Shown here: positions 4,195-31,692 of the stretch, piece by piece
Position numbering within the stretch: the stretch's first letter is position 1
Layout of the letters: each line of letters begins with the position of its first letter
Assembly (NCBI GenBank): GCA_965198945.1
Contig: CBDAQI010000010.1
Coordinates: forward strand, 64,001-128,000
DNA from: Thermodesulfobacteriota bacterium
Lineage (GTDB): Bacteria; Desulfobacterota_D; UBA1144; Nemesobacterales; Mycalebacteriaceae
Direction of reading: 5' to 3'
Length of the DNA: 64,000 bases
The notes under the pieces: model-generated
Told to the model about the DNA's origin: nothing
Seen by the model: only the letters and a program-made list of their open reading frames with translations
Database searches by the model: none
Translations under genes and position numbers: made by a program

Positions 4195-4315
4195 GGGATA
4201 ATAGATTCCTAGTTTTGCTGTTAGGTTTAGCTTTCAATAGAATCAGTGGCGTTGAGGTGTTGTTATTCAGCATCCATTTGTTACTTCTTTTCAATCTATT
4301 TATATTCCAAGCCGA

Positions 4316-5292
4316 ATGAAGACGATAAAAATATTTAAAAGACTTCAAAGGTTTGTAGACAAGACTTTCAAAACCACATTAGAAGTTTTTCTTGAGGCTT
4401 TAAAGCTTAGTCCAAACGCTCAAGGATATGTAAGTGGTTCTATAACAGAATTGCTTCTAAAAAATGAGTTGGAATCTCTAGGTTTTCAAGTAAAGAGAAT
4501 TAGAGAAAAGTGGGAGGGTACAAAACACCCGAACCATCATGGAGATTTTATTTCAGAGAGGATGGCCAGAGTCCTTGGTATGTACTTGAGTCCAAGGGTG
4601 TCAAGTCCAATGCGGAACGATGGCACAAACTGTACAATCTCAAAAAATTGAAAAAGGTCTTTTACGACCATCACGAAGTTATTCACTGGATTGATCCTAA
4701 TCAGCAGATTGAACCCCAAATTGAAAGGTGGATTGAAGAGAATCTTCCGGAAATGGTTAGTGGCAAATATTCATGCGACCTGTACTCATACGACGAGATT
4801 CGTGATTATTTAAGTAATCCTCCTGCAAGAGAAACAGACAAACTTAGAGCCATGAGGAGGCTTGAAATCTATAGCCGTGATGAAGTTGGCAATATGTTTC
4901 AGGAAAGACTCCAATATCTCATGAGCAAGGTTATGTTACTTGATACGCACTTCGTGTCAGGAAAATCGGGAGCAAATGCCAGGACACAAGCTACCCCACT
5001 CAAAAATGAATTCAATCTGGTTTCGGTTGACATAGTTCTGCGATACAGTGAGCATAAATTTCTTTTTGTTAATCCAAAACATTTGGAATCTTCTGGAAAA
5101 GACACTAATCACCTTCAGCAGAATTATGTGATGGGTTTTGTTTTTCCTCAGAATGATGGGTCAATGAAAATTGACCTTGCGGATGAATGGCAGGAAGATT
5201 TTGGACGTGCCTATAAAACTCTCAGTGCGAAAGACTCGGTCATTGAAAATGACATGCAGATAGACAACAGGATGGTGATACTTGAAGACTAA
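4316..5292 (+). pseudogene. PD-(D/E)xK type II-like restriction endonuclease, frameshifted
   Basis: ORFs 4316..4651 and 4510..5292 join by adding one T to the T4 run at 4546-4549, giving HHGDFYFREDGQSPWYVLESKG (D...ExK motif). Adjacent to a methyltransferase. Confidence 0.7.
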
Positions 5293-7316: not shown

Positions 7317-7602
7317 ATATTTTTGAAAACCTGAATTTTACTTAAAAATTTTTGGAAACAATAAGATATTGCTCTAAAGTCATTTTTTGATTATTTAGTT
7401 TTTTCAAACAAGATGTCTAACCTTATTGCTTTTCTTGGTTGTTTGAAAATTAAATGTCTATTAGAAAGTTTATATTAATGCGTATTGGTTTTATCAATTA
7501 TAATAATGAACTAATATCTAAAAATGCTCTGCAAGGCACTTAAAAAGATATTATAAGCCCAAAATGATGGTCGTATCATCAGTCTTTGTCCCGTTACAGG
7601 AT

Positions 7603-8602
7603 TTAGCAATTTCCGCCTTTAATCCTCCCGCTCTCCGTCAACCTGTATTTCTGTGTCGGGCTCCTCGGCGAATCCGGTTGTGTCATCTCAATCAACCCTT
7701 TCTCCAATGCGGGTTTCAAATATCTGTCGCTGAAAGAACGGCGATGTTTTAATCCCAGTTTTTTCATTATCTCGCCCGCCCTGAGCGGCTTTGTTTTGAG
7801 TGTTTTCAAAAGCATTTTTACTTGGTCGGTTACTTGGTCGCTCGCGGCTTCTGAAACGGCGCTTTCAATCATCTTTAGCGCAAACTCAATAAACTCAGTT
7901 GAGCTGCCCGCTTTGTTGCAGTTGTTTAGCGCTTTGTAATAGTCGGCGCGATGGTTGCGAACCATGCTCTCAAGCGGCAGAAAATTGAAAAGAGAGTTCC
8001 ATTTTCCCAGAATGAGAGTTTGCCAAAGGCGTCCCATTCTGCCATTGCCGTCTTGAAACGGATGAATCGCTTCAAACTCATAGTGAAAAACTGAACTGGC
8101 AATCAGAGGGTGTTCGTCCGTCCGTTCAAGCCATCCCAGCAGTCTTGTCATCAAAACGGGAATCCGCTTTGCTTGCGGGGCTATATGAATAATGCCGCCG
8201 GCACCGCCCACTCCCACAACGCCGGAACGGAAACATCCAAGTTCTTCCACAAGTCCAAGCATCAAAACTTTGTGCGCGGCAAGCAGGTTTTTTTGAGAGT
8301 GCGGGGTCAATTCCGGTATTTTTTCATACGCCGCAAAAGCGTTTCGCACCTCCCGTATTTCCTGCGGAGGAGCCAGCACGGTTCTGCCTTCAAGGACGGC
8401 GGCTACCTGCCCCACGGTCAGAGTGTTTCCCTCTATTTCCAAACTTCCCTGTATCGTTTTGATACGGTTAATCCTGTTAAGACGGAGCTTTCCCGAACCG
8501 GTTTTGCGGGCTTTAGAGATTTCCCAGAAATTCACCGATTTTTTCCACCAGCCCACCAGCCGACGAAGTTATTTCATAAGGCGGATACGTTTCCCTCTCC
8601 AT
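7603..8602 (-). pseudogene. Fic-domain protein with C-terminal winged HTH, frameshifted near the N-terminus
   Basis: Canonical motif HPFQDGNGRMGR, SLEIEGN, and C-terminal PRSPTQKYRLT. The typical N-terminus MERETYPPYEITS..VEKIGEFLGNL starts at ATG 8602 in another frame and hits TAA at ~8513-8515. Confidence 0.8.
7819..7842. repeat. 2 x 12-bp tandem repeat TACTTGGTCG(G/C)T, encoding the SDQVTDQV linker of Fic
   Basis: tacttggtcggt tacttggtcgct read directly. Confidence 0.8.
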
Positions 8603-8613
8603 AAACTTAATTC

Positions 8614-8648
8614 TACTTGGTCGCTTACTTGTTCGCCACTTGGTCGCT
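8614..8648. repeat. 3 copies of the same ~12-bp unit upstream of the fic start
   Basis: tacttggtcgct / tacttgttcgc / cacttggtcgct. The first unit is identical to 7831-7842. Confidence 0.8.
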
Positions 8649-8709
8649 TGCCTTCCATTTTTTCTTGCCTTAGTCCGCCGGAAGCCAGACTAACCCACTC
8701 CCGCCGATG

Positions 8710-8718
8710 TGATAAACT
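8710..8718 (+). promoter_or_regulatory. putative extended -10 promoter for secA
   Basis: TG-A-TAAACT, 9 nt before the ATG, with no SD in between. Confidence 0.4.
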
Positions 8719-8727
8719 ACCCCCGAA

Positions 8728-11469
8728 ATGCTCGGCAAAGTATTCAAAAAAATAGTCGGAACCAGCAATGACAGACGAGTTCGGAAAATGTATTCCGTTG
8801 TGGAAAAGGTGAACGCGCTTGAGGCTGATGTTTCGGTTCTTTCAAACTCTCAGATTGCGGAAAAAACCTCCGAACTTCGCGCCCGTGTTTCGGGTTCCGC
8901 TTCAAAAGGCGATTTGAGCGCGGCGTTTGACGAAACGCTTCCCGAAGCGTTTGCGCTTGTGCGCGAGGCGTCAAAACGGGCGGTGGGTATGAGGCACTTT
9001 GATGTGCAGATTATCGGGGCGCTTGTTCTTCACAGAGGCGAGGTGGCTGAGATGAAAACGGGTGAGGGAAAAACCCTTGTCGCCGTTCCGGCTTTGTATC
9101 TGAACGCGCTTGCGGAAAAAGGCGCGCATCTGGTGACCGTTAATGACTACCTCGCGGGCAGAGACGCGCTTTGGATGGGAGCGGCTTATAAACTGCTCGG
9201 CCTGCAGGTGGGCGTTATAAACTCAGGGCGGTCATACCGCGTTGAGTGGGAAAACCCTGAAAGCGCACAGACTGCGGTTCGTGAAAATATGTCCGTATGG
9301 ATGGGAGGGGCAGACCCGGAACAGCCCGAAGGAAAAAATCACGAAGCGGTTTCGGCTTTTAAGACCAAACTTGCCGAATGCTCAAAAAGCGAAGCATATG
9401 CCTGCGATATTACCTACGGCACAAATAACGAGTTTGGTTTTGACTACCTGCGCGACAATATGGGTTTCTCGCTTGAAGACTATGTTCAGCGCGGACATTT
9501 CTTTGCGATAGTGGATGAGGTTGACAGCATACTGATAGACGAGGCGCGCACACCGCTGATTATTTCGGGGCCTTCGGGCGGTTCAACTGATATCTATTAC
9601 AAAATAGACCATTTGGTGGAAAAGCTTTCAAAAGAGGAAGACTTTTCAGTTGATGAGAAAAATCGCCGCGCGGAACTTTTTGAATCGGGAATTTCAAAGG
9701 TGGAGTCCGCGCTTGGAATTGCAAACCTTTATGACCCCTCAAACCTTGAGACGCTTCACTGTGTAAATCAGGCCCTGCGGGCGCGACATCTGTTTCACAG
9801 GGATGTGGACTATATGGTCAGAGACGGCAAGGTTGTGATTGTTGACGAATTCACCGGGCGTCTCATGGAGGGGCGGCGGTGGAGCGACGGTCTTCATCAG
9901 GCGGTGGAGGCGAAAGAGAAAGCGGATATAGAGCAGGAAAACCAGACCCTTGCCACGATAACGCTTCAAAACTATTTCAGAATGTATGAAAAACTTTCGG
10001 GAATGACCGGAACGGCAGACACCGAAGCATTTGAATTTCAGAAAATATACGAGCTTGAAGTTACCATTGTGCCCACTCACAGGGATATGGTGAGAAATGA
10101 TTTTGACGATGTGATTTACCGCACCGAGAAAGAGAAAAACTCCGCCATCTGTGACGAGATAAAAGAATTGAACAAACTCGGCAGACCCGTTCTTGTGGGC
10201 ACAACTTCAATAGAGCAGTCGGAGAAAATATCCGCCGTTCTTAAAAAAGAGGGCATCGGGCATCAGGTTTTGAACGCTAAAAATCATGCCAGAGAAGCGG
10301 AAATAGTGGCTCAGGCCGGCAAAGAGGGGGCGGTTACCATTGCGACCAACATGGCGGGCAGGGGAACCGACATAGTTCTTGGCGGAAACCCGGAATTTGT
10401 TCCCGAAGGTGAGAAAAAGTCGTTTGCGCAATCGCAGGCGGATTCCGAAGCCGGAAGGAAAAAGGTTCTGGAACTTGGCGGGCTTCATATAATCGGTTCC
10501 GAAAGGCACGAATCCCGACGCATAGACAACCAGCTGCGCGGTCGCTCGGGGCGTCAGGGAGATCCGGGCTCGTCCCGTTTTTACATATCTTTTGAAGACC
10601 CGCTTATGAGAATTTTTGCGTCCGAAAGGGTCGCTTCAATCATGGACATGGTGGGCTGGGAAGAGGGTGTTCCTATGGAGCACGGGATGATGACAAAGGT
10701 CATAGAGTCTGCCCAGAAAAAGGTGGAAAGCCGTAACTTTGATATAAGAAAACACCTTCTTGACTATGACGATGTGCTGAACACTCAGAGAGAGGTGGTT
10801 TACAAACTGCGCCGCGGGATACTTGAGGGCGGTGGCGCTCTCAAACAGAATTTTCTTGAGATAGTGAAGAAACTTTCCGAAGACCTTTCAGAGGAAATAT
10901 CCGCCGCCTCCGGTGAAGACGCTCAAGCTGTTACAAAAGAGGCGCGGAGCATCTTCAATCTCGGTGACAGAAAAATTGACGATCGCGCCCTCGGCAAAGC
11001 GGTGACGGACAGATACGCGGAAAAAGAGTCGGAAATCGGTGATGACGAAATCGTTTTTGACATTCAGAGGTTCATAATGCTTCAGACCCTTGACGGTTTA
11101 TGGAAAGACCATCTGCTTGCGATGGACCATCTGAGGGAGGGAATAGGTTTGCGCGGCTACGCTCAGAAAAACCCGCTTTACGAATACAAAAACGAGGGTT
11201 TTGAGATGTTTTCAGATCTGATTGCGACATATGAAGAGGAGGTTTGTTCCAAATTTTTCAGTGTTCAGCTGGCGCGCAACGAGGATATACCGTCTTTGGA
11301 GCGGGAGCCCGAAACGCAGGATGTGTTTTTGTCATCCGGCGGCGAACCGGCCGAAGCCCCCGCTCCGCAGGTTGCGGCTCCCGTGCGCAGGGCGGGCGAA
11401 AAAGTCGGCAGAAACGACCCGTGCCCGTGCGGGAGTGGGAAAAAGTTTAAGAAATGTTGCGGGAAGTGA
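8728..11469 (+). CDS. secA: preprotein translocase ATPase SecA
   Basis: [40 protein letters not shown]-terminal SEC-C motif [18 protein letters not shown]. Confidence 0.99.
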
Positions 11470-14275: not shown

Positions 14276-14695
14276 ATGTCTGAAAACAAATATGCAAAAC
14301 CTCTTCCGGAGTTCCGTCCGGAAACAAAACCGTTTTGGGACGGGTGTAAGAGTCACAGTCTTATGCTTCCGCGCTCAAAACAGACCGGAAAGTTTTTCTT
14401 TTATCCGAGGGCTTTTTCTCCGGGAGATGACATGAGCTCTGACATTGAGTGGGTTAAATCTCCGGGCAGGGGAAAAGTCTGGACCTTCTCCATTCATCAT
14501 ATGGGGCCCACAAAGGCCTATAAGGCAGACGGCGCATATGTGGTTGCGCTCATAGAGCTTGAAGAAGGCGTAAAGATGATGTCCAATGTTGTGGACTGTG
14601 ATGTGAATGAAGTCAAAATCGGAATGGAAGTTGAGGTAGTTTTTGACGATGTTACCGACGAGGTGACGCTTCCGAAGTTCCGTCCCGTCAAATAG
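14276..14695 (+). CDS. DUF35 (OB-fold) acyl-CoA-binding partner
   Basis: PFWDGC, G.GKVWTFSI, ALIELEEG.KMMSNVV, IGMEVEVVF..LPKFRP. Confidence 0.88.
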   Translation: MSENKYAKPLPEFRPETKPFWDGCKSHSLMLPRSKQTGKFFFYPRAFSPGDDMSSDIEWVKSPGRGKVWTFSIHHMGPTKAYKADGAYVVALIELEEGVKMMSNVVDCDVNEVKIGMEVEVVFDDVTDEVTLPKFRPVK

Positions 14696-14715
14696 GAACC
14701 CGGAGGAAATCAGTT

Positions 14716-15171
14716 ATGTCAAAAATTTTCTACGAAGACATTGAAGTGGGTGAAGAGCACGAAAGCACCGGCAGAACCGTTACCGAAGCTGATGTTGTGA
14801 ATTTTGCCGGTCTTTCGGCGGACTTCAACAATATGCACATAGACGAGGAGTTTGCGAAAAAAACGGTTTTTACAACGCGCGTCGCGCACGGCTTGTGTGT
14901 TCTTTCAATATCTTCAGGTCTCTGGTTTACCATGCCCAGACTTGCCACAATCGCCTTCATGGGGCTTGAGGACTGGCGCTTTTCCGGTGCGGTAAAGTTT
15001 GGCGACACGATAAGAATTAAACGCCGCCTTGCGGAAAAACGCGAACACAAAAGGCCGAATATGGGTTTTCTCATATGGGAACTTGATGTTCTGAATCAGA
15101 AGGACGAGGTTGTGCAGAAGGGCAAATGGGTTATTCTTGTTCAGAGAAGGGAAACGGAGGGGAAGAGCTGA
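14716..15171 (+). CDS. MaoC-like (R)-enoyl-CoA hydratase
   Basis: YEDIEVG, RTVTEADV.NFAGLSADFNNMH (D-x4-H dyad), RVAHG, V.FGDTI. Confidence 0.9.
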   Translation: MSKIFYEDIEVGEEHESTGRTVTEADVVNFAGLSADFNNMHIDEEFAKKTVFTTRVAHGLCVLSISSGLWFTMPRLATIAFMGLEDWRFSGAVKFGDTIRIKRRLAEKREHKRPNMGFLIWELDVLNQKDEVVQKGKWVILVQRRETEGKS

Positions 15172-15197
15172 CCGCTCTCCGCAAAGTGAATTTTCCC

Positions 15198-15227
15198 TTG
15201 TTTAATTGGTGTCTGTTACATTATAAT
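15198..15227 (+). promoter_or_regulatory. sigma70-like promoter
   Basis: TTGTTT-18 nt-TATAAT upstream of the outer-membrane protein gene. Confidence 0.45.
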
Positions 15228-15280
15228 GAGTGTTCAGTTTCGGGTTATTGTTTTTTAATCCTTAACGGGAGATTATCAGG

Positions 15281-15928
15281 ATGAGGAAATTTATCTTATT
15301 ACTGGTTCCGGTTTTTACGGCCGTCCTTGCATTTACCGCACCCTCCGTTGCACAGACGGATCCCGGCTACGGGTCTTTGGGTGCGAGCTCTGTGACGGCA
15401 AAGTTTATTTCAAAAGAGTTCGGGGGTGAAATCGTACGGAAAGCTGCGGTGTCCGGAGCCCAAAGGTTTCAGGGATTTCAAATTGACACGGATTTGTTCC
15501 ACACAGAGCATGTTGATTTTATTACCGAGACTTCATACTCTCAGGTATCTTCAAACGGTTTGAAATCGTGGGTCTTTGACGCTTCCCTGAAGCCCGTTGC
15601 ATATAAACGGATAACACCGAACATCAAATTATTCGGAGCGGGTTCTCTCGGTCTTGCAAGAGCCAATGTAAAGACTTCCCACACGAATCAATACAAGGAA
15701 ACCGAGCTTATATGGAGCCTTGCCACCGGCGCCGAACTTAACCAGGGGCGTTTGTCTTTGCTTATTTCGGTCGGATATGAGTGGATGGATGAATTTGGAA
15801 AAGGCGCCGAGGTTGAAACCGAAGCCAAAATAACAATGACAGACCGGTTGTTTCTGAACACCGGATTGGGCTATAACTGGAATCCTCAGGCTTTTTCGTT
15901 CAATATCGGAATGGGTCTCCGTTTCTGA
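15281..15928 (+). CDS. outer-membrane beta-barrel protein
   Basis: Signal peptide (MRKFILLL..SVA-Q), alternating beta-strand pattern, C-terminal BAM signal ...GMGLRF. Confidence 0.7.
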   Translation: MRKFILLLVPVFTAVLAFTAPSVAQTDPGYGSLGASSVTAKFISKEFGGEIVRKAAVSGAQRFQGFQIDTDLFHTEHVDFITETSYSQVSSNGLKSWVFDASLKPVAYKRITPNIKLFGAGSLGLARANVKTSHTNQYKETELIWSLATGAELNQGRLSLLISVGYEWMDEFGKGAEVETEAKITMTDRLFLNTGLGYNWNPQAFSFNIGMGLRF

Positions 15929-15951
15929 TTCAAAACGGATTTTACTTTTTA

Positions 15952-16707
15952 TCAGTTATCGCAGCTTTTGAGAATTTTTGCCACTTCTCCGGAAAAACCG
16001 GCTATTTTCTCTCTTATGATAAGGTCTGCATATTCGTCATAGGGAGTTTCCATAAGGTTCAGAATTATAAGTTTTGCGCCTTTTCTCAGAGCCATTTGAG
16101 GCAGAGTGCTCGCCGGTGTTACAACAAGTGAAGAACCGGCCACTATAAGAACATCCGATTTCTCAACCAGCTCAACCGCATTGTTCCACGGTTCGCGCGG
16201 AAGCGGCTCTCCGAAAAAAACCGCGTTCGGTTTCAGAATTCCGCCACACTCGCAGACGGGGGCTTTTTCTCCATTCTTCACCCTCTCCATCACTTCTTCC
16301 ATCGGTCTGTGCTCTCCGCATTCAACACAAACCGTCTCCCGTATTGAGCCGTGAAGCTCATGCACGGTTTGTGAGCCGGCCTCTGTGTGAAGCCCGTCCA
16401 CGTTCTGGGTTATGATTCCCCCTATCACTCCCCGACTTTCAAGTTCGGAAAACAAAAAATGTCCGGCATTGGGTTTTGCCGCACTGCGGGTCGGGTAGAG
16501 CTCCAGCGCATATGAGTAGTAGGCTGCGGGATTGCGAAGAAATCCGTCAAGACTGACCACCGATTGGTCCATTTTTTCCCAGATGCCCTCTCCGGGTGAC
16601 CTGTAGTCGGGAATTCCGGACTCGGTGCTTATTCCCGCTCCGGTGAGAACCGCGCCGTTTCCGGCAAGCGAGAGTATTTCAACAAATTTTTCCGCCCCGG
16701 CGTGCAA
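15952..16707 (-). CDS. cobB: NAD-dependent protein deacylase (sirtuin)
   Basis: TGAGISTESGIPDYRS, TQNVDGLH, ELHGS, CxxC...CxC, GSSL.V.PA. Confidence 0.93.
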   Translation of the reverse strand: MHAGAEKFVEILSLAGNGAVLTGAGISTESGIPDYRSPGEGIWEKMDQSVVSLDGFLRNPAAYYSYALELYPTRSAAKPNAGHFLFSELESRGVIGGIITQNVDGLHTEAGSQTVHELHGSIRETVCVECGEHRPMEEVMERVKNGEKAPVCECGGILKPNAVFFGEPLPREPWNNAVELVEKSDVLIVAGSSLVVTPASTLPQMALRKGAKLIILNLMETPYDEYADLIIREKIAGFSGEVAKILKSCDN

Positions 16708-16727
16708 ACCGTCAACCGTCCGGGTTT

Positions 16728-17401
16728 TTACCGTGAGTCCGGCAGAAAGGTGATTTTTTTTGCATTACCGTCTTCTTTTGTCTCAAATTTTATGCCTTTC
16801 ATTTCTTTTACCGCGGTATAGACCACTTTTCTTTCATATGCCTGCATTTTATGGAAAGTGAACGGCCTTCCCGATTCTATTACCTTTTTTGCGGCTTCCA
16901 CAGCTTTTCTTTCAATCTCTTTTTCTCTTTCCCTTTTGTAGTTGTTGATGTCTATTGAAATTCTTTTGCCTTTGCCCGGCTGCTTGCCCGTTTTTGCCGA
17001 CACTATTCTCGCGACAATGTATTCCAGATTTCTGAGGGTTTCCCCGTATTTACCTATTAAAAGGCCTTGGGACTCTTCAACATTCAAGTCAACCTCTATG
17101 GCAGAATCGGTTTCCGAAACTTTGAGGGAGTGTTGGATTCCCATAATGTCCAGAATTTTTGCGGTTGCCTCGCGGGTTTCTTCCGGCACTTTTTCAGGGA
17201 AGTAAGCCGTTGTTCCGCCGCCGTTTTCACCGCCTTTCGCCATGACTCTGATCTTTGCCTTTTTGCCGCCTATCCCAGGATGCCTCTTGTTGGTTTCTGT
17301 AAAACCTCAACTTGAACTTCGTCCCTGCGGACACTCAATTCCAGAAGAGCTTCTTCAATCGCTTCTTCAACCGTGTCAGCCTCTTTTTCAATCATTTTCA
17401 T
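16728..17401 (-). pseudogene. jag: Jag/EloR (KhpB) RNA-binding protein, frameshifted between Jag_N and KH-R3H-like domains
   Basis: Jag_N reads MKMIEKEADTVEEAIEEALLEL...KPTRGILG from 17401. Adding one base at the C3 run 17274-17276 gives GILGIGGKKAKIRV, joining ORF 16728..17243 (LLIGKYGETL, IDINNYK). Confidence 0.85.
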
Positions 17402-17441
17402 TTTCCCGTTCCTCCAGTTTTGTTACTTGTTTTCCCCCTTT

Positions 17442-19094
17442 TTAAGCGGGACTGCTCCTGTTTATGTATATCTGTTGTGCAACACTCAGCACATTGCTTG
17501 CCGTCCAGTACAGCACAAGACCCGAAGGAAAGTCCCACATGACAACCGTAAAAACCACCGGCATGAACTGCATTATTTTCGCCTGCATCGCGGCAGTGTC
17601 GCCCGTGGCGGTCATGGGAGTGAGCTTTGTTGAAAACCACCATGAAACCCCCATTGCAAGAGGGAGAATTCTAAACGGCACGGAAGTCCAGGGTATGGTG
17701 AAAAGCCCCTTCTCAGGAGCCGAAAGGTCTGTTATCCAGAGAAAATCACTGTGACGCAAGTCTATTGAATACAGAAGACCGTAGTAAAGGGCTATGAAAA
17801 CCGGCACCTGAGCGAGCATCGGCAGACATCCTCCCAGACTGCTGAGCGGATTGACTCCGTGGCTTGAGTAGAGCTTCATCATTTCCTCGTTCTGGCGCTT
17901 TTTATCGTCCTTGAACTTTTCCTTCAGAGCATCTATTTTCGGTTTTATGATTTCCATTTTCTTCTGCATCTTCTTCATTGATCTCATTCCCCTTATGGAG
18001 AGAGGTAGAAACATCAATCTGAACACAATTGTTATTACTATTATTGACACTCCGTAGTTGTTGAAAATCCTGTTTGTGTAGTTCAGGATTTTTACGGCGA
18101 GTTTTGAAAGACCTCCGAACCATCCGTAATCAATGGCATTTTCAAACCCGTAGCCGGCAGCTTTAAGCATGCTCTCCTCTTTGGGGCCGATGTAGGATTT
18201 CCATTTGCGAACCGAGATCGCGCCTGCGGGAACCGAAAACCTTCCATATGAAAAGGCGGTCTCAATGTTTTCCGCCTTGTCGTTTTTTGCGCGAACCTCT
18301 GTTGTTTCACCCGATTCGGGCAGTGAAGCGAGAATGAAGTATTTTTTTGAAAAACCAAGCCAGTCCACTCTTCCGGAAAGTGAACGTCCGCTTTTGTCTC
18401 CGGCATCGTTGAACTGTTTCTTTTCACCGTTCAGCGAGACGACAAGAGCGTCCGCAGGCCCGTATCGCGCCTCCTCTATTTCTCCTCTCTGAAGAAAATG
18501 GATTGCATATTCGGCGGTTTCTCCGGATTTGTTTTCTATCTCGTATCTGCCTCCGATAACATATGTGTCCGGTGCAAAAGAAAGTTTTTTGGTAATTTTA
18601 ACGCCGTCTTTTTCATACAGGAGGGCTATCTCTCTTGCGAGCCCCTCAACATTGACAACTTCTGCTCCCTCATATTTGAAAGGTATTGCGGGCGCAAGTT
18701 TTATTTTTTCAACGGACAAAGCCGTTTCGGGAGCCGTTGACGAGACCTCAAGAAGATTCAGCCGGGTTTCGGCACCGGGGTTTTCAAAGTAGTTGTGAAG
18801 AAGAAACTTCTTGACGGTTCCGCCCGCAGTGTCAACAAATGCGGTGTATAGAGGTGTCCGGATCTCCAGCGTTTTGCCGGTTTGCACGGAGTCCCAGGGA
18901 TTTTGCTCTCCCCAGACGCCTGCCGGAACCGCCGCCGTTGCGGCCTGCTTTCGTTCCGTCCGTTTTTCAGTTTTCTCCACGGCAGCCTGTTCGGCCTGCG
19001 GTCTGGGAGGAAACAGTTTGGAATATCCGAAGATAATTCCCAGGGCGAGAACGGCAAAGACTATGTAATTAAAGGTGAGTTTTTCATCTTTCAT
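17442..19094 (-). CDS. yidC: membrane protein insertase YidC
   Basis: IDYGWF, NYGVSII..TI..R, GGCLPML.Q.PVF..LY, WI.DLS.P, PSGLVLYW; syntenic with rnpA/yidD. Confidence 0.97.
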   Translation of the reverse strand: MKDEKLTFNYIVFAVLALGIIFGYSKLFPPRPQAEQAAVEKTEKRTERKQAATAAVPAGVWGEQNPWDSVQTGKTLEIRTPLYTAFVDTAGGTVKKFLLHNYFENPGAETRLNLLEVSSTAPETALSVEKIKLAPAIPFKYEGAEVVNVEGLAREIALLYEKDGVKITKKLSFAPDTYVIGGRYEIENKSGETAEYAIHFLQRGEIEEARYGPADALVVSLNGEKKQFNDAGDKSGRSLSGRVDWLGFSKKYFILASLPESGETTEVRAKNDKAENIETAFSYGRFSVPAGAISVRKWKSYIGPKEESMLKAAGYGFENAIDYGWFGGLSKLAVKILNYTNRIFNNYGVSIIVITIVFRLMFLPLSIRGMRSMKKMQKKMEIIKPKIDALKEKFKDDKKRQNEEMMKLYSSHGVNPLSSLGGCLPMLAQVPVFIALYYGLLYSIDLRHSDFLWITDLSAPEKGLFTIPWTSVPFRILPLAMGVSWWFSTKLTPMTATGDTAAMQAKIMQFMPVVFTVVMWDFPSGLVLYWTASNVLSVAQQIYINRSSPA

Positions 19095-23730: not shown

Positions 23731-23745
23731 TATGTTAAAACGCTT

Positions 23746-24336
23746 ATGAATGGAAGAAAAAAATCCGTAAAAAGGTTTATATCCGCCATTTTGATACTGC
23801 AGGGGCTTTATGTGGTGTTTCCCCTTCCAGACATCTGGCCCGTGTCCAACTACCCGATGTTCAGCCGTGCGTCCGGCGCCTCCGTTGTCTATTCAAAACA
23901 AATAGTCGCTGTTACCAAAGACGGTGAGCGTGAGCTGAGAGCCACTGATATAGCCCCTTTTGACATTGTGCGTCTTTCAAAAGGGATAGACAGAATTACC
24001 CATGGGGACAGGTTTGCGGAGAAGGATGACAGAAGAATAAACCGCATAATTGACGCCCTTCAACTAAGTCTCTCAGACGGCGAGTCTGTGAGGCGTTTTA
24101 TAAAAACGAAACTTCTTTACCAAAAAAACGCCGGAAGCGTGGAAGATGAATTGAAAACGGTTTTTCAATATCTGTCAGAGCAGTATAAGCGCAATGGCGG
24201 TCCGGATGATTTTTCTGAAATTAGACTTTACAACATAAGGCATGATTGGACGGATGTTCCGCCGCTGTCGGCCGAGACGGAAAAAATTCTGATCTATTCA
24301 ACAAAAACCGGAATGGGAGAGAAATGGAGCAAATAG
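23746..24336 (+). CDS. membrane-anchored protein of an HTTM-associated type
   Basis: N-terminal TM followed by WPVSNYPMFS, a motif I associate with the soluble C-terminal parts of HTTM proteins; overlaps the next gene. Confidence 0.55.
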   Translation: MNGRKKSVKRFISAILILQGLYVVFPLPDIWPVSNYPMFSRASGASVVYSKQIVAVTKDGERELRATDIAPFDIVRLSKGIDRITHGDRFAEKDDRRINRIIDALQLSLSDGESVRRFIKTKLLYQKNAGSVEDELKTVFQYLSEQYKRNGGPDDFSEIRLYNIRHDWTDVPPLSAETEKILIYSTKTGMGEKWSK

Positions 24337-25226
24337 CGGGAAAATTAAAAGACCGTTTTTTCGGTTTTTTCTTTGCCGAATCGGAAGCTTCGGCGCTTGG
24401 GGTTTGCAGGTTTTTATTCTGCGGATTTATTTTTGTTTATTACCTCGGCGCAAATTTTGCAGACTGGGGTCTGGTTCCCGATGAGCTCTGGCATCCGATT
24501 TTTCTGTTTGATATTTTCAACCTGCCGGTTTTTTCCCCGGCTGTCCTCAAGGTTCTGGGACTGGTCTGGCTTGCCTGTGTTTTTTTGAGCGCGGTCGGAT
24601 TTTTCTCCCGTCCAGCCACATTTCTGTCATTTGTCATTGGTTTCTATCTCATCGGAATGACCAACAGTTTTTCCAAAACCCATCACATGGAAACCATCGT
24701 GCTTTTTGTTTTCGCAATTCTGGCTTTTTCCCGTTGCGGAGACGGTTTTTCGGTGGACCGGCTGATAAAATCTCGTCGCGGCGAGCGCATTTCTCCTTCG
24801 TGGGAATACGGGTGGCCCGTCAAATTAATTCAGGTGCTTATGATTTTCTTTTTCTGCGCCGCGGGACTTTCAAAATTGAGAAATTCTGGGCTTGAATGGG
24901 TTTTTTCAGAAAACTTGTCCGGCCTTTTTATTTCCGGACTGCTTGGAAATCAGAGGCACGAGCCGCTTTTTGACTGGCTCACTTTGATGCTTGCGCAGAA
25001 ACATATCTCAATTTTTCTTGCAGGAATCACCTTACTTCTTGAACTGTTGGCACCGCTCGCATTTTTTGGACGACGTTTGAAAGTTGTTATCGGCATGGGG
25101 CTGTTTTTTATGATGGCGGGTTTCTGGGTGGTGATGGGGCTTGCTTTTCCGCAGTGGATTGCGGCTTTTGTATTCTGGTTGCCGTGGGATGAGGTGGTTC
25201 GCAGAACGAATATCAGGAGCGGATAA
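24324..25226 (+). CDS. HTTM-domain (vitamin K-dependent carboxylase-like) membrane protein
   Basis: ALG.CR.L, L..VG.F.R, KTHH, C.D.FSVD, WPV.LIQ...AGLSKL..SG.EW, LLLEL..P. Confidence 0.8.
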   Translation: MEQIAGKLKDRFFGFFFAESEASALGVCRFLFCGFIFVYYLGANFADWGLVPDELWHPIFLFDIFNLPVFSPAVLKVLGLVWLACVFLSAVGFFSRPATFLSFVIGFYLIGMTNSFSKTHHMETIVLFVFAILAFSRCGDGFSVDRLIKSRRGERISPSWEYGWPVKLIQVLMIFFFCAAGLSKLRNSGLEWVFSENLSGLFISGLLGNQRHEPLFDWLTLMLAQKHISIFLAGITLLLELLAPLAFFGRRLKVVIGMGLFFMMAGFWVVMGLAFPQWIAAFVFWLPWDEVVRRTNIRSG

Positions 25227-25766
25227 ATTAAAAACGGAACAGTTTTTCTTCTTTGTATTGCGCTGGTTTTTGCGGGTTTTCCTCTACTGTCCGCGGAAGC
25301 GGTTGATAATGGCAGGGCGCTGCCGGAATTCACATCAAAAAACCCGCAGGACTGGATTAACTCAAAGCCGCTGAAAAAATCAGATCTTAAGGGCGGGGTA
25401 ACTCTCATATATTTCTGGGCTTTTGACTGCTGGAATTCATACCGTTCTTTCCCGTGGCTGCGCGGAATTGAAAAGCGTTTCGCGGACAGGCGGTTTAAGG
25501 TGGTCGGCATACACACGCCTGAGTTTGAGCGCGAAAAAAGCAGAAAAAATCTTGAGGCGAAAGTGAAAGAGTTCAAACTTGCTCATCCAGTTATGATGGA
25601 CAATAATTTCAGATACTGGCGAAAAATGAACAACCGCTACTGGCCCGCTTTTTATCTCGTGGACGGAGAGGGCGATGTCGTCTATAAAATGATAGGGGAA
25701 ACGCACAAAGGACAGAAAAAAGCGGAAGAGTTTGAAAGGGCTTTGGAGGGTTTGGTTAACCAGTGA
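25227..25766 (+). CDS. exported DipZ/TlpA-like redoxin with CxxS motif, probable ATT start
   Basis: Frame open from 25227: (M)KNGTVFLLCIALVFAGFPLLSAEA-...WINSKPL..DL.G.V...FWAFDCWNS...VGIHTPEF...NRYWPAFYLVD. SD AGGAG at 25215-25219. Confidence 0.8.
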   Translation: MKNGTVFLLCIALVFAGFPLLSAEAVDNGRALPEFTSKNPQDWINSKPLKKSDLKGGVTLIYFWAFDCWNSYRSFPWLRGIEKRFADRRFKVVGIHTPEFEREKSRKNLEAKVKEFKLAHPVMMDNNFRYWRKMNNRYWPAFYLVDGEGDVVYKMIGETHKGQKKAEEFERALEGLVNQ

Positions 25767-25813
25767 ATCTGGTAGACTTTTCTTGAAAAAAATTATATCG
25801 TGGGCTTGAATGT

Positions 25814-26971
25814 ATGAACAGAATTGAAAGTACATTAAGAAAGGAAGTTAAGAAGGTTCTTGTTGGTCAGGGGTATAGGATTAGCAAAGGGCAGTTTTGC
25901 TTTGACACAGATAATATAGAAAAAAAGCGATATTTGCATCAATTTTCCCGGGCGGAAAGAATTAGAGAAAATTTTGATTTTATAAGATCATTTTTGCCTG
26001 AAGCCAGAAAACATCTTCTTGATAGTTCAAGTTTAGAAGTCTCAAAAATTCAACCCAGATTATTAGAAATAAAGTCAGGAACAAGAGAAGGAAGTTTATT
26101 CCGTTGGTGGAACCTTGTTTGGTGGAGCCTCCCATATGAAAAATCATATGGAAGACAGATGAGGTTTATTGTATGGGATGAATATCACGACGCTCCGATT
26201 GGTCTGATAGGTTTACAAAGTCCTCTTCTTTCTTGGAGTGTTAGAGACAAATACCTTTCAATAGGAGTCAAACAAAGAGATTACTGGGTAAATCAATCTC
26301 TTTCTGCTCAAAGATTGGGTTCACTTCCTCCTTACAATGGGTTTTTAGGTGGAAAACTGGTTGCTTCACTGATGACGTCGGATTTGGTTAGGGAATCTTT
26401 TAATAAAAAATATAATGAAAGTCAAACATTGCTTTTGAGAAGGAGATTGCCGGCAAATCTGCTTTTTATAACTACTACGGGTGCATATGGGAAGAGCAGT
26501 GTTTACAATCGGCTCAAGTTTAATGAGGAAAAAATCTGTGATTTTATCGGCTACACAAGAGGAAGTGGTTCATTTCATATATCTAATACTCTTTACGAAA
26601 GTTTTGTCAGTTATCTGAGAGACCAGGGCTATAAGGCAGGAAGGTCTTTTGGGAACGGTCCTTCTGTTAAAATGAGAAATATAAGGAAAGCAATGAACTT
26701 GTTAGGTTTCAAAAACGGCTGTGAGCATGGAATGAAAAGAGCTGTATACCTTTTTCCATTTGTTTCAAATTTGAAACCTGTAATACAGAAAGAGCAAAAG
26801 CCTGTTTGGTATCAAAGAAGTATAGAAGATTTGACAAACTACTGGAAAGAAAGGTGGGCTTGTAAAAGAGTCGACAATCATGAGAAAAGTTTTTTTTCCG
26901 GTGAAGATTATATTGATGAATTGTTAAAAGATTTGGCAAATTGCGAGAAACTTGCGAGTAAGAATATTTAG
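25814..26971 (+). CDS. DruA-like (DUF4338) protein
   Basis: WSLPY..SYGR.MRF.VWD......IGLIGL.SP......RD..., LGS.PPYN..LGGKLVA....S, L..ITTT.A.G.SS.YNRL, G.T.GSG.FH. These match my recollection of Druantia DruA/DUF4338; 385 aa. Confidence 0.8.
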   Translation: MNRIESTLRKEVKKVLVGQGYRISKGQFCFDTDNIEKKRYLHQFSRAERIRENFDFIRSFLPEARKHLLDSSSLEVSKIQPRLLEIKSGTREGSLFRWWNLVWWSLPYEKSYGRQMRFIVWDEYHDAPIGLIGLQSPLLSWSVRDKYLSIGVKQRDYWVNQSLSAQRLGSLPPYNGFLGGKLVASLMTSDLVRESFNKKYNESQTLLLRRRLPANLLFITTTGAYGKSSVYNRLKFNEEKICDFIGYTRGSGSFHISNTLYESFVSYLRDQGYKAGRSFGNGPSVKMRNIRKAMNLLGFKNGCEHGMKRAVYLFPFVSNLKPVIQKEQKPVWYQRSIEDLTNYWKERWACKRVDNHEKSFFSGEDYIDELLKDLANCEKLASKNI

Positions 26972-26973
26972 TT

Positions 26974-28155
26974 ATGGACAAAAAACCTTACGCATATTTG
27001 CCAGAAGATCTTTTGTTGCAAATGCTTGAAAAAGCGCCTCAAACTGCAAAACAATTGGCAAATGCAATTGAAGTCAATGAATCTCAAGTAGAAAAAGCAA
27101 GGAGTTTATTAAAAGATAAAGACTTTATTATATCTTGTTCTGGAGGCGATGTTACAGAATCAATTATGGCTACTGATGGTGCCAATATTATTGAACATAA
27201 GGCAAGTGCTGACATTGTTTTGGCAATTGCAGTTGGAGTAGATGGTCTTTCAAAAGAATCTTCAACTCATTGGCCTGAAGGCTCGCGACAGTATCAGCAA
27301 TGGCAAGATGCGTTACCTCACCACGTTGCTAATTCAAGATTGGCACAAGGTGTGATGTTCCTTATGGAATTAAGCATTCTGGCTGAGACAGACAGAAAAA
27401 TCAGAATAATGGATGGTTCTCATATAACTGCTATTCTCAAGCTCAATAGTTTGTTAAGTGCTAATGATGAAGATAGAGCTGATAAGCCATACGTGAAAGC
27501 CCTCTCAAGATTCCTGTCTGAAAACTATGACAAAGTCATTCCCGATATACCGGATATTATCGCTTCTGCTTTTTCCGACAAATCTATAATAAGTCTTACC
27601 AAATATTCTTCTTCAAGGGAGATTATAGACTCTCAATTGCAAACACTTGAAATAGTTGCCGATGACAAGGTTTTTATGTCTACGCTTCTTGAGGAAAATG
27701 AGTATACAAAACCTGTTTCTGTGGGACAATCAGCAAAAGATAAAAAAATGTGGGAAGATTTTCATATAAAGTGCAATTTGCCAGTTGACGGAGTAAATAA
27801 TTCGGAACTTGAAAATCGTCTTGAAGATGCAATTGCTCCATTCAAAATTACGGAAGATCACGAATCGAATTTGTTTTTTTGTTATTATAAACCTTTGAAA
27901 CATACTATGGCTCATCGAGTTGAATTAAAGAAGAGTCTTGCGGAAAGTAAAAAAGATCTTGAGTTTTTTCTTAGAAGTTTGAAAAAACAAATAATCTTTC
28001 CAGAAATACGAGAGCCATACCCACAGTTTTTAGCAGATATTATTGCCAAAAATATTTATTTTGGAATGGAAGCGGTTAATCAGGCTATTTTCAATAATAA
28101 ACTGCTACATAGCCAGAAAAATTTTGATTTTGTTCTTCCATATAGGACAAGTTAA
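26974..28155 (+). CDS. NurA-family 5'-3' nuclease
   Basis: Acidic motifs IMATDGA and IMDGSH, C-terminal EPYPQFLAD..AK; directly upstream of herA. Confidence 0.8.
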   Translation: MDKKPYAYLPEDLLLQMLEKAPQTAKQLANAIEVNESQVEKARSLLKDKDFIISCSGGDVTESIMATDGANIIEHKASADIVLAIAVGVDGLSKESSTHWPEGSRQYQQWQDALPHHVANSRLAQGVMFLMELSILAETDRKIRIMDGSHITAILKLNSLLSANDEDRADKPYVKALSRFLSENYDKVIPDIPDIIASAFSDKSIISLTKYSSSREIIDSQLQTLEIVADDKVFMSTLLEENEYTKPVSVGQSAKDKKMWEDFHIKCNLPVDGVNNSELENRLEDAIAPFKITEDHESNLFFCYYKPLKHTMAHRVELKKSLAESKKDLEFFLRSLKKQIIFPEIREPYPQFLADIIAKNIYFGMEAVNQAIFNNKLLHSQKNFDFVLPYRTS

Positions 28156-28167
28156 GTAGTAAGTATT

Positions 28168-29913
28168 GTGCCTGTGCCCGAATCTATTATTGACTTACTG
28201 AATTCTGATCAGAAACCCCTTGGAGCAGTCGGTTCTCCAAGTGACACTTTTGAAGCAACTGTTGATGTTCTTGAGGTTAGCGAGAAGGAAAAACTTTTGG
28301 GTGAATTGGCTTGTTTTTGTGTAAAAGAAGGCAGTGGTGATGTGTTTGTACTGGGTCAAATAACTGAAATTACAACAGAAAACAGATGGCACCAATAGCC
28401 ATCCTTTAAAGGTATTATAAAAAGACATGGCAATCTTCCCAATTTAAGTGGTGTAGCAGATAATCGTATCGCTAGGATAAATGTCCAATCCAGTTTTATG
28501 CTGACAAGTAATCAATCAGAAGCAGAAGCACATAAATTAGCAAATTCTCCTTCAACGGGTGTGCCTGTGAAAAGAGTAAGTAATGAGATCATGCAAAAAC
28601 TCGTGAGGCAATATGAAGAACTTGTTTCTCTTGGAAACTCTTACGATACCGATGTCAGTGTGCCATTTTGGTTCAAACACTTTGGCAAGCCAACTGAAGG
28701 GGGAGATGGTGATGCATATCATATTGGAGTTTTTGGCCGTACGGGTTCTGGAAAAACTACAACAGCTGCTAACATGATTTTAGGTTATGCTCGCAATAGT
28801 TCTCATATGAATATTTTGATTCTTGATCCGCAAGAGCAGTTTTACGAAGACAATAATGTGTTGCCAAACGAAGTGAGTTTTAAAGAGCAAATATTAAAAA
28901 CTGGAATGACTTATGAAAAATATAGAGTTCCTGAAGAAGTTGCATTGCCTGATGATGCAAAACTCTTTAGTGAACTTCTATTGAATTATAATTTTATCAA
29001 AATTGCTTTCGATATTTTAACTGAGCAAAAACTTGAAGAAATGAGAGAAGCTATAGAGAGATATGTTAGCATTCGTATAGATAACGGAAGATTAAAAATC
29101 TCTACGAATCCTGAAAAATTATACGAGGATTTGCTTAATTATTTTCTTAATGAGAATGAAAATAAAGAAAGAGAACCCTTGAAGCAGGTCTATAGTACAA
29201 AACCCAAAATAAATGAGATTAAAGAAAATATAAGAAATACAATCTCTTCTAATAAAGGAAAGGAAATCTGGAAAGTGATATGCAGTCTTTTTTCAGAATC
29301 CGGGAAAAAACCTCTCAGAGAGATAGTAAATGAAGTTGTTAGGCAAAATAATTCTCAAAATGGAGAAAATGGCAAGACAATTGTTTTAAACATTTCTGCG
29401 AGAGGGGCTCAAAGGGGAATGGATGATTTGCATGCATTGTATGTAAAAATCATTGAAGATTCTATTAAAGAAAAGGGAGCGAAACTTTATGCAGATGGGA
29501 AAAAAGCAAATTGTCTCGTTGTATTGGACGAAGCTCATCGCTTTATAAATACGTACAATTATGATCAACAAATCAAAGAATTGACTGCCAGCATTATTGA
29601 TGCCGTTCGCACAACCAGAAAGTATGGAATTGGCTATATGTTTATTACTCAAACTATTGAATCACTTCACAGGGAAATTAGAGATCAAATTAGAATATTT
29701 GCTTTTGGTTATGGTCTTACAAGTGGTACAGAATTCGCGCAAATTAAGAATATAATCAACGACGAATCAGGAGCAAAGTTTTATCGTTCTTTTATAGATC
29801 CATCAAGTAATAAAAAGTTTCCGTTCATGTTTTATGGACCTATTTCTCCTCTTTCATTTACAGGTGCGCCTCTTTTCTTAGAAATGAATGGCCAAATTAT
29901 TGATTTTCCATAA
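28168..29913 (+). pseudogene. HerA/FtsK-superfamily ATPase with HAS barrel, in-frame TAG at 28396-28398
   Basis: ORFs 28168..28398 and 28498..29913 are in the same frame (RWHQ*PSFKGIIKRHG...). HAS barrel G.VGSPS, Walker A HIGVFGRTGSGKT, Walker B VVLDEAHRF, RKYGIG..FITQ. Confidence 0.85.
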
Positions 29914-30138
29914 ATTTTTCCTGCATGTCATGTTATTGTCCAGTTTTCTCAATTGCACCTTTTGATTTTCTCCATCTTTTGTTTATAGTCCTTAAATCTC
30001 GAAGTGATCTGATAATTTTCGTATTAGGCAATCGTTCTTTTGTCTCAAACTGCGTTTCTTTATTACCTCAACTATAAAGTGAATTGAGAAAATATTTTCT
30101 GAAAGTTTTTTACTTGTGAAATTAAAATTTCTTCAATC

Positions 30139-30940
30139 TCACAAAATAACCGTCTTTTCCCCGTCAATAAATATGCGGTGCTCAATGTGATATTTGACGG
30201 CTTTGGCAAGCGCCTCGCATTCATTTTCCATTCCGGTTTGCTTGAGGTCTTCGGGGGTCTGGTTATGATCAACGCGGGTTGTTTTTTGTTCAATGATCGG
30301 GCCTTCGTCCAGATTTTTTGTCACATAGTGCGCCGTTGCGCCGATAAGTTTCACTCCGTGTTTGTGCGCCTGATGGTAGGGTCTTGCGCCTTTGAACGCG
30401 GGCAGAAATGAGTGGTGGATATTTATGCACCTGCCCTGCAACTCACCGGCGAGTTCGGGAGACAAGACCTGCATGTAACGGGCAAGCACAACAAGCTCCG
30501 TTCCGGTTTCCCCGATAATTTCCAACAATTCTTTCTCCCGTTTTTTTCGTGTCGCCGGGCTGACGGGCAGATGAATAAAACGGACGCCTTCGTTTTCGGC
30601 ATCCGGTTTTTCTGCGGTAAAACAGGTCTTGCAGGCAGTGCCCGTCTTTTGAGACCATAATTAAAACCCTGAACGGTTTTTGCGGGTCATGAATCTCCCA
30701 TTTCATTCCGAATTTGTCCGCGACCCGGGGAAATTTCCGGCGGATTTCACCAATTTTTTGTTTTTCAGGATGAGTCCGGAACTCGGTTCTCATAAAAAAT
30801 TTGCGGTTTGACTCGTCATCAAACTGCTGCAGTGACAGAAGATAGCAGCCGTTTTCAGAAAGAAACGAGGTTATTGCGGCGACTATACCGCTTCCCGCCG
30901 GGCAGACAACGGTCAGGATAAAATTTCCTTCTTCCTTCAA
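30139..30940 (-). pseudogene. purU: formyltetrahydrofolate deformylase with internal deletion and frameshift
   Basis: ACT domain (LTV.CP...GIVA.I, FFMR.EF) and VSK.GHCL.DL.YR in one frame; LARYMQVLS, INIHHSFLPAFKGA.PY.QA, GATAHYVT..LDEGPII.Q in another. The segment with the conserved V.SNH motif is missing at ~30602. Confidence 0.85.
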
Positions 30941-31692
30941 GTTTGCACGCTTCTCTGTATCGCCCCTCTTATCTCCGCCCATTTTGCGTTTAGAAATCTC
31001 AAGTCAGATTCCGCTTTTTCAAAATCGCCTTTTTCAATGCCGCTTATAATTCTTTTCAAATCGCCCACTGAATTTTCGTTTTTCATTGAATCCTGAGTTA
31101 TGAAAGAGCATATTTCACCGTAGTTGAGAACAATTTCCCCGTCCGAGTCAAAACCGCGCAGCCAGCTGTTCATTTCGCTCAGTTTCCTGGGAAGATCTTT
31201 CAGTTTGGCAAATTCGGGATATTTGGAAACTATGTCCCCCGTTTTTTCCAGAACTTTTTCCGCTGTCCTGATTCTCTCCATGGCGGTTCCTATGTTTTCC
31301 GGATAGAAAATTGAATCATGGTGAACGGCACCGAAACCCGCGTGTGTATAGAAAAAGTCGCGTTTTTCCTCATCAAATGCAATCAGCCACTCAAACGGAA
31401 TGAAATCTTCGGAGGAAACTATGTTGAAACTTGACCGGTCTCTCAGCCTGCAGACAAAATAACGCCCGTCCTTTTTTGAAAAAAAACAGTCTCTTATTTC
31501 ATTTGCTCCGATATCAAGATAGTTTGCAAGGGAGTTTCTGAATTCATCATATTCGGCTCCGCCCCATGTTGATTTGGGAGAGGCCGGTCTGTCCCAGAAT
31601 TTTTCGTAAAATCTTATGTATTCCCTCCAGTATTCATTGCCTCCCGGCACCGAATCAATCGTTTCATAAACCATCAGAGCGCACTGTGCCAT
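30937..31692 (-). CDS. hypothetical protein
   Basis: 251-aa ORF in the aroE operon with backbone-like composition; no motif recognised. Confidence 0.7.
   Translation of the reverse strand: MAQCALMVYETIDSVPGGNEYWREYIRFYEKFWDRPASPKSTWGGAEYDEFRNSLANYLDIGANEIRDCFFSKKDGRYFVCRLRDRSSFNIVSSEDFIPFEWLIAFDEEKRDFFYTHAGFGAVHHDSIFYPENIGTAMERIRTAEKVLEKTGDIVSKYPEFAKLKDLPRKLSEMNSWLRGFDSDGEIVLNYGEICSFITQDSMKNENSVGDLKRIISGIEKGDFEKAESDLRFLNAKWAEIRGAIQRSVQT

Follow-up and report, generated by a model that had tools for sequence, protein, structure and literature searches.

In a 64,000-nucleotide stretch of the genome of a Thermodesulfobacteriota bacterium (contig CBDAQI010000010.1, positions 64,001 to 128,000; hereafter the window), three adjacent genes encode a DruA-like protein, a NurA-family nuclease and a HerA-type ATPase. 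The locus is read here, with moderate confidence, as a copy, inactivated not long ago, of a druA-nurA-herA cassette that is self-contained and moves horizontally. The cassette most likely protects against phages and other invading DNA, perhaps as a modification-linked restriction system. That the cassette is a defence system of one kind or another is the firmer part of this reading and may be called probable. The specific logic of restriction-modification (R-M), in which DruA would mark self DNA and HerA-NurA would destroy unmarked DNA, is put forward more tentatively. The features of the locus are as follows.

25814-26971, plus strand: druA-like gene, 385 aa, intact, stop codon TAG
26974-28155, plus strand: nurA-family nuclease gene, 393 aa, intact
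28168-29913, plus strand: herA (FtsK/HerA-type ATPase) gene, 581 codons with one in-frame stop
28396-28398, plus strand: TAG nonsense codon in herA, codon 77
25836-30138, no strand assigned: low-GC insert, bounded by a conserved minus-strand open reading frame (ORF; 25437-25835) and purU

All three genes are co-oriented, with 2 nucleotides between druA and nurA and 12 between nurA and herA, and the GC content of the trio is 0.353 as against 0.495 for the remaining window. Core genes lie on both sides: upstream, a DCC1-like gene and oadAB, which encodes subunits of oxaloacetate decarboxylase; downstream, purU, aroE, ribF and trkH. An earlier reading made from the letters of this DNA (the sequence-only reading) had described three tightly packed, co-oriented genes in an AT-rich island amid core genes, and its coordinates, gaps, base composition and flanks agree with those given here.

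Conservation and spread of the cassette

The same trio recurs in many genomes. A scan with a NurA profile, taking one genome per species, yields 36 loci, whose gene content was assessed by tblastn. All three genes are present in 29 of these loci and stand in the order druA-nurA-herA in 28; in L027, druA is inverted and lies downstream. The contig edge is reached after druA-nurA in L009, L013 and L034, and L032, L033, L035 and L036 are fragments or unclear. Overall, druA is linked in 32 of the 36 loci. Over 27 units the median gaps are 2 and 9 nucleotides, and the three proteins co-vary in their identity to those of the window (Spearman 0.63, 0.90 and 0.61). Clustering of the flanking ORFs recovers three recurrent clusters only, drawn from 37, 33 and 30 sources; since no other cluster reaches more than 5 sources, there is no conserved fourth gene. 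According to record titles, the hosts include Gammaproteobacteria, 'Bdellovibrionales', several lineages of the candidate phyla radiation (CPR)/Patescibacteria, Omnitrophota, Ignavibacteriota, Bacillota, Planctomycetota and others, with at least eight phylum-level labels. Inheritance and transfer thus involve the three genes together, as a single compact unit, and the recurrence of the neighbourhood that the sequence-only reading had envisaged is not a matter of chance adjacency. The cassette has spread widely among uncultured lineages, some of them CPR bacteria whose genomes are tiny.

Close relatives of the host differ at the insertion site. A NurA protein query finds a match in one of five congeners and in none of 35 other genomes of the same order. 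At the orthologous site, congener G001 has no insert, and its purU directly adjoins the conserved minus-strand ORF; congener G003 carries an intact cassette and has lost purU; and congener G002 holds a different insert of 4.2 kb, with Vsr-like, type II restriction endonuclease-like and PD-Lambda-3_B-like genes. The insertion site is a hotspot in this genus. No flanking direct repeats or att-like sites stand out around the island, and the best inverted pair flanking it, 28 nucleotides at 71%, is treated as chance.

This distribution bears on a housekeeping role. In its classical description NurA-HerA resects DNA ends, and the pair might accordingly serve double-strand-break repair as it does in thermophilic archaea and Deinococcus, with DruA as an unrelated neighbour. 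However, the nuclease was found in one of five congeners and in none of the 35 other same-order genomes, the island is low in GC, and the cassette has crossed phyla. No mre11 or rad50 gene is conserved with it in the 36 loci, where druA is regularly linked, and the flanks in the window are metabolic. Moreover, a nonsense mutation is tolerated in the window copy. A repair function is thus extremely improbable.

DruA also occurs with other partners. A second, far more divergent druA-nurA-herA cassette (cassette 2) is present in the same-order genome G075, adjoining a tyrosine integrase; its NurA is 26% identical (hhalign probability 99.7%). In G070 and on a Nitrosococcus plasmid, DruA accompanies a DruE helicase and two further proteins, of 955 aa and 360 aa. 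In the DruA tree (FastTree, midpoint root, 118 rows, with 9 of 25 cassette-locus rows left out), the DruAs of cassette 1 group in a single clade of 17 rows, with SH-like support of 100, in which phyla are intermixed; the three DruE-linked DruAs form a separate clade, and the DruAs of cassette 2 and of genome G014 are nearer to the DruE group. Two histories would account for this: an ancient NurA-HerA partnership, or an exchange of motors. In the genomes sampled, DruA is modular, paired with alternative motors: DruE, NurA-HerA in two divergent clades, and HerA in G014.

The G014 unit (L076, G014:C1:1752000-1771900) lies at 14643-19061 on the minus strand and encodes a 383-aa protein, a 684-aa HerA (E=4e-24 against DUF87) and a 410-aa DruA. 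Its 383-aa first protein is of no known family; a relationship to the cassette NurA was considered and rejected (hhalign probability 0.8%).

The integrase beside the G075 cassette fits a role in DNA mobilisation or mobile-element maintenance. The model for such a role is the NurA-like/TdtA operon of Thermus ICETh1, which expels donor DNA in 'transjugation': a NurA-like gene of T. thermophilus and the HerA-like TdtA are described as lying in the same operon as a methylase and a type IIG enzyme, and both are reported to be required for DNA donation (PMC5365140). In contrast to this model, integrase, relaxase and transfer genes are not conserved with the cassette. The NurA profile finds no relative in the IMG/VR viral contigs and just three matches, all distant, in 72,556 plasmids, and the cassette resides in tiny CPR genomes. 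These findings argue against mobilisation, which is a highly improbable function.

The neighbours of the cassette point instead to defence. Flanking ORFs of at least 130 aa at L001-L018, half of the 36 loci, were scanned with PADLOC models at E<=1e-10. Matches are found for 26 of 120 ORFs, spread over 14 of the 18 loci, and include type I and type III R-M genes, OLD/AriA/Gabija-like ATPases, a DISARM-like helicase and IIG enzyme, a UG29 reverse transcriptase, and MzaA. In the control set, made up of window ORFs outside the island, 4 of 54 match; all four fall in a cluster at 682-8556, and none of the 50 others does. At the loci scanned, the trio is thus associated with defence islands.

The window also contains a separate defence-type cluster at 682-11466. 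One member is a 1170-aa SMC-like ATPase, whose PADLOC matches to 'mad3' and LmuB may reflect nothing more than SMC. The others are a type I methyltransferase (5282-6493) with a short specificity subunit (6738-7313), a minus-strand gene of Fic/SoFic-like type (7606-8556), and an ORF of 913 aa that has no PADLOC match.

The three proteins and the interrupted herA

Gene 1 matches Pfam PF14236 (DruA) with E=1.2e-59 and PADLOC DruA1 with E=7.7e-88 over profile positions 13-374 of 407 (362/407), nearly the full length, as expected from its original description as a DUF4338/DruA-like protein. An AlphaFold2 model built from an alignment of 77 diverse family members (predicted local distance difference test, pLDDT, 94.7; predicted template-modelling score 0.92) has a GNAT fold at residues ~76-335, with N- and C-terminal helical extensions and two additional helices (258-296) between the last core strands. 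Residues D122, G130, P173 and Y200 are invariant across the 77 family members. A wide structural search with this model, independent of Foldseek and covering 48,161 PDB representative chains, places phage Mu Mom first (8bv8_B, the inactive S124A mutant; Z 10.8, root-mean-square deviation 3.5, 167 of 202 residues aligned). Generic GNAT acetyltransferases follow at Z 9-10, and nearly all of those listed among the 104 chains at Z>=8 are acetyltransferases. Since Mom and the generic GNATs are tied, the claim is limited: on the model, DruA is a GNAT, 'Mom-like at best' and not a Mom orthologue. This agrees with the link of DUF4338 to the GNAT/Mom fold that the sequence-only reading had made, and DUF4338 is termed a GNAT in earlier work by the Aravind group (PMC10853773). 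Foldseek matches of the model are all GNATs among the top ones, and are weak (E 5e-3 and poorer), and a DruA profile run against PDB sequences gives chance-level matches only.

Mom itself is described as moving glycine from Gly-tRNA(Gly) to adenine N6 in double-stranded DNA. It is reported to require a helix-turn-helix (HTH)-like insertion within the GNAT core, and its catalytic residues are given as R111, S124, D149 and R151 (PMC13219725). The two additional helices of DruA (258-296) may or may not be the counterpart of this insertion.

Fusion proteins join the DruA domain to ParB_N and part of a DNA methylase, to DUF488, or to an HTH of the transposase type. Such fusions are among the indications that DruA acts on DNA, as are the phage matches given below and the modification signal of type I Druantia. 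DruA/DUF4338-like domains are multi-copy in one genus of the window's order (L078, G026:C1:91000-95000; L077, G022:C1:1176000-1180500). There, DruA-like ORFs of ~300 aa directly adjoin transposases of the IS66 family, one genome scoring 17 near-identical copies, and DruA-like ORFs of ~755 aa are present in many copies in other genomes. Phage-borne relatives of DruA may also exist: in the Pelagibacter myophages Mosig and HTVC008M (MT647606.1, KC465899.1), DUF4338 is weakly matched at 25% identity, with E from 2e-5 to 1e-4, and one of the matching proteins carries a DUF4338 annotation.

Gene 2 itself has no NurA match in Pfam at E<=0.1. Of its aligned homologues, which are 50-82% identical to the window protein, 12 of 15 match PF09376 (NurA), the best with E=2.4e-9. 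The motifs ATDG (66-69), MDGS (146-149) and YPQFLAD..AK (349-359) are present in gene 2 and invariant in 31 sequences, as are the acidic residues D68, E132, D147 and D355, which by analogy are likely to be catalytic. An AlphaFold2 model made from 15 sequences is poor (pLDDT 63.5), and a NurA profile finds no NurA match among PDB sequences; the top Foldseek PDB matches of the poor model are nevertheless the NurA structures 9x1m_G (E=3e-4) and 2ygk_A (E=9e-4), at TM scores of 0.26-0.34. An N-terminal winged-helix region at about residues 11-67 is possible, the weak HTH-type Pfam matches all being below curated cut-offs. Together, the invariant motifs and the PF09376 matches of the homologues uphold the assignment of gene 2, first made from these motifs, as a NurA nuclease.

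Gene 3 matches the Pfam DUF87/HerA family (PF01935) with E=1.1e-9, and a HerA profile matches the PDB entries 8wiv (HerA), 8wet (TdpA) and 4d2i (Sulfolobus HerA), each at E ~2e-7. Its Walker A (GRTGSGKT) and Walker B (LDEAH) motifs both lie after the stop; GxxGSGKT and DEAH are invariant in 25 HerA orthologues. PADLOC and NCBIfam models of anti-phage HerA proteins give weak, partial matches, the best partial PADLOC match being 'mad8'. Family match, Walker motifs and structural profile matches thus leave the identification of gene 3 as a HerA ATPase in place.

The herA frame is interrupted by TAG at codon 77, within the conserved motif RWHE[E/D]PSFK, which reads RWHQ*PSFK in the window. The homologous codon is GAA, GAG, GAC or GAT, encoding E or D, in all 27 regularly aligned loci. 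An assembly error is unlikely: the per-run contigs of three runs agree with the window over 25700-31100, with no difference and no gap, which indicates that the stop is not a one-off assembly slip. These runs represent two samples of one study and are possibly the source data, and contigs hide minority variants. Reassignment of TAG was likewise rejected, because druA itself terminates with TAG, which is thus a normal stop here, and because of the uniformly acidic homologous codon. In the congener G003, herA has an open frame of 582 aa at the equivalent site. Elsewhere in the window copy, neither druA nor nurA is shortened or has lost any of the invariant residues, and the inactivation of herA looks recent. 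Because the change from GAG or GAA to TAG truncates the motor upstream of its ATPase domain, the cassette is probably dead here, as judged from the reading frames. The sequence-only reading had spoken of a stop-repaired locus; the stop is probably real, and the inactivation, at which that reading only hinted, is placed at codon 77. The repeated occurrence of broken copies suggests that the cassette is costly to keep.

The G003 proteins are the closest known to those of the window for DruA (79%) and NurA (82%). The C-terminal part of the G003 HerA (L040), at 66% identity, is less similar to the window than those of L001 (73%) and L002 (76%), which suggests recombination or fast divergence within herA.

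The borders of the island show further irregularities. On the minus strand at 30139-30982, purU (formyltetrahydrofolate deformylase) is broken into two overlapping ORFs in different frames, with the ACT part at 30443-30982 and the formyltransferase part at 30139-30528. This break is also present in the contigs of the three runs; of the congeners, G001 and G002 have an intact purU, and the cassette-bearing G003 has none. On the other side, at 24950-25835 (minus strand), two overlapping ORFs of 208 and 132 aa keep their overlap arrangement in all three congeners. In its long form the 132-aa ORF overlaps the start of druA by 22 nucleotides, and its true start is probably internal. Between this ORF and the DCC1-like gene, a region of ~1.6 kb (23731-25312) has no counterpart in congeners G001-G003 and may be another insertion or a frameshifted gene; neither of its two overlapping ORFs (23746-24336, 24246-25226) is matched in Pfam or PADLOC. 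Scans for a sigma-70 promoter on the plus strand upstream of druA and for a terminator after herA gave no convincing site and no terminator, respectively, and are uninformative.

Proposed function and competing explanations

In the proposed mechanism, a HerA hexamer would pump double-stranded DNA into a NurA dimer, where both strands would be digested, as modelled on the solved archaeal HerA-NurA and on TdpAB. Digestion of double-stranded DNA, in both its strands, is reported for the T. kodakarensis HerA-NurA (PMC12977600). DruA would covalently mark host DNA and so permit discrimination of self from non-self; this is the least certain step. Its mark would probably sit on adenine N6, like that of Mom, and be an acyl- or aminoacyl-derived adduct. 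Marked DNA would be spared and unmarked incoming DNA destroyed, amounting to restriction-modification in which no methyltransferase takes part. R-M logic is favoured by the precedent of tdpABC, considered below, together with the HerA-NurA effector that we infer.

Type I Druantia in E. coli is reported to produce a unique 'm6A' signal though it has no methylase domain (10.1101/2024.04.14.589459; cited in 10.64898/2026.05.12.722862). A further conjecture, speculative and somewhat doubtful, is that the 'm6A-like' signal of type I Druantia hosts is a Mom-type adenine-N6 adduct made by DruA. The cassette would then be a minimal R-M system built on such chemistry, in which the mark stalls or excludes HerA-NurA, and phage Mom would be a counter-defence cousin. 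If DruA does mark DNA in the manner of Mom, bacterial immunity would include a non-methyl, possibly tRNA-dependent chemistry of self-marking, the modification signal of type I Druantia would be explained, and a phage anti-restriction enzyme would be linked in evolution to a host defence enzyme.

Several observations weigh against this preferred reading. The first rank of Mom is nominal, since generic GNATs lie within 1 Z unit of it, which counts as a tie by the rule of the tool, and Foldseek finds nothing in the PDB at E<=0.001 for the DruA model. The report of the 'm6A' signal is a preprint, and the activity is not assigned to DruA. IS66-type elements carry short DruA-like ORFs as passengers in many copies, which hints at a role for the DruA-like domain in DNA recognition rather than marking. 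At L010, druA and herA are both frameshifted, and this fits poorly with strict R-M addiction. As to context, the window's own flanks (within 7 kb on either side) and 4 of the 18 loci scanned contain no PADLOC match, and some PADLOC matches may be housekeeping paralogues, such as the UvrD-like 'GajB' and the SMC-like 'mad3'.

Some of these points favour the main rival, a defence system in which DruA serves as a sensor of infection or as an activator. DruA might recognise a feature of phage DNA or a phage protein, or might acylate a partner, and would then license HerA-NurA, much like the accessory subunits of SIR2-HerA and DUF4297-HerA. The fusion of DruA-like domains to DNA-binding HTHs and their travel on IS66-type elements fit recognition of a sequence or structure, DruH of type III Druantia is reported to sense without DNA modification (10.64898/2026.05.12.722862), and the spacing of 2 nucleotides between druA and nurA suggests co-translation of partners. 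However, the GNAT core is strongly conserved, and its four invariant residues therefore favour catalysis over binding alone. In addition, the first-ranked fold match of DruA is a modifier of DNA bases, and a new DNA modification signal accompanies type I Druantia in its host. A sensing role is accordingly considered unlikely, and marking of self DNA by DruA is preferred.

A GNAT fold is also compatible with abortive infection, with DruA as a toxin that, for example, acetylates aminoacyl-tRNA like TacT/AtaT and is released or activated by HerA-NurA upon sensing phage DNA ends. A GNAT toxin (7byy_A, Z 9.0) is among the fold matches of DruA, and in SIR2-HerA and DUF4297-HerA the HerA protein is described as the platform on which toxic effectors assemble (PMC12977600). 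Yet no small antitoxin-like gene is conserved, the fusion partners of DruA are DNA-acting domains, and a second effector would seem unneeded because NurA appears, from its residues, to retain a full nuclease active site. Abortive infection by a DruA toxin is thus highly improbable.

The earlier proposal of a candidate defence system has therefore passed the computational checks. Its further parts, that NurA-HerA replaces DruE and that DruA marks or senses DNA, are what we infer rather than what is observed.

Comparison with known systems

The cassette resembles type I Druantia (DruABCDE), among the broadest-acting E. coli defence systems in one reported screen (10.1101/2024.04.14.589459), in having a full-length DruA homologue first in the operon, in being based on a DNA motor, and in its presence in defence islands. 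It differs in that motor and nuclease are HerA and NurA, not the DruE SF2 (superfamily 2) helicase with its MZB domain, and in that its DruAs form a clade apart from the three DruE-linked DruAs sampled. The window's own genome, which is 95% complete, has no match to MZB (PF09369), a positive control having matched in 8 of 14 genomes, and none to the 1846-aa DruE of G070; nor is a DruE conserved across the 36 loci. Genes 2 and 3 have no PADLOC match to DruB, DruC or DruD, and no further gene is conserved beside the trio. DruBCD and DruE are thus missing from the cassette, as the sequence-only reading had stated. Druantia type IV, described as DruE+DruF+DruL (PMC8565338), was considered as the identity of the cassette and is unrelated. 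Because all of the types need DruE, which is not found here, the cassette stands outside Druantia I-IV. Type I Druantia has DruA as its signature, and no paper assigning DruA a function was found; the cassette offers a far smaller system for learning its role, with a motor and a nuclease that are well understood.

PADLOC 2.0.0 recognises DruA and, weakly, HerA, and holds no NurA model. In the literature searched, no paper naming or testing a DruA-NurA-HerA system was found, a listing in bioRxiv supplements being possible, and DruA, HerA, NurA and GNAT go unmentioned in the YprA/ARMADA preprint and in one Druantia preprint. The trio is thus not a named system in either source, consistent with its first description.

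The archaeal and Deinococcus-Thermus NurA-HerA pairs (9x1m, 2ygk, 4d2i) consist of the same two families, with nurA directly upstream of herA and the motifs kept. The cassette differs from them in lacking linkage to mre11-rad50, in being linked to druA, and in its patchy, low-GC, horizontally spread occurrence. SIR2-HerA and DUF4297-HerA likewise combine a HerA-family ATPase with an effector in a compact defence operon; in the cassette, however, the effector is NurA and druA is the third gene, and neither gene 1 nor gene 2 matches SIR2 or DUF4297 in Pfam or PADLOC. With phage Mu Mom (8bv8), the first-ranked structural match, DruA shares a GNAT core with extra helices, but at ~10% sequence identity and, in its 385 aa, with extra helical parts at both the N and C termini. 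Mom, moreover, is a phage counter-defence enzyme, whereas DruA occurs in host defence operons.

By analogy of architecture, the closest precedent for the cassette appears to be tdpABC. Both consist of three genes, combining one putative modification gene with a HerA-type hexameric motor and a nuclease. An intact HerA orthologue has TdpA as its sole phmmer match in the PDB (E=5e-7; 586 versus 588 aa, over the C-terminal third only), and TdpB is among the weak fold matches of the poor NurA model (Foldseek rank 26, E 1.1). By profile, however, the cassette HerA is equally distant from TdpA, 8wiv and the Sulfolobus HerA. In TdpABC (PDB entries 8wet and 8wfd), TdpA is the HerA-like translocase and TdpB the nuclease. 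The modification gene also differs, being a GNAT/Mom-like druA in the cassette and not tdpC, which acts in phosphorothioate synthesis. In tdpABC, a modification function of one gene is described as coupled to TdpAB (PMC12914056), and this is the arrangement that the druA-nurA-herA cassette would share.

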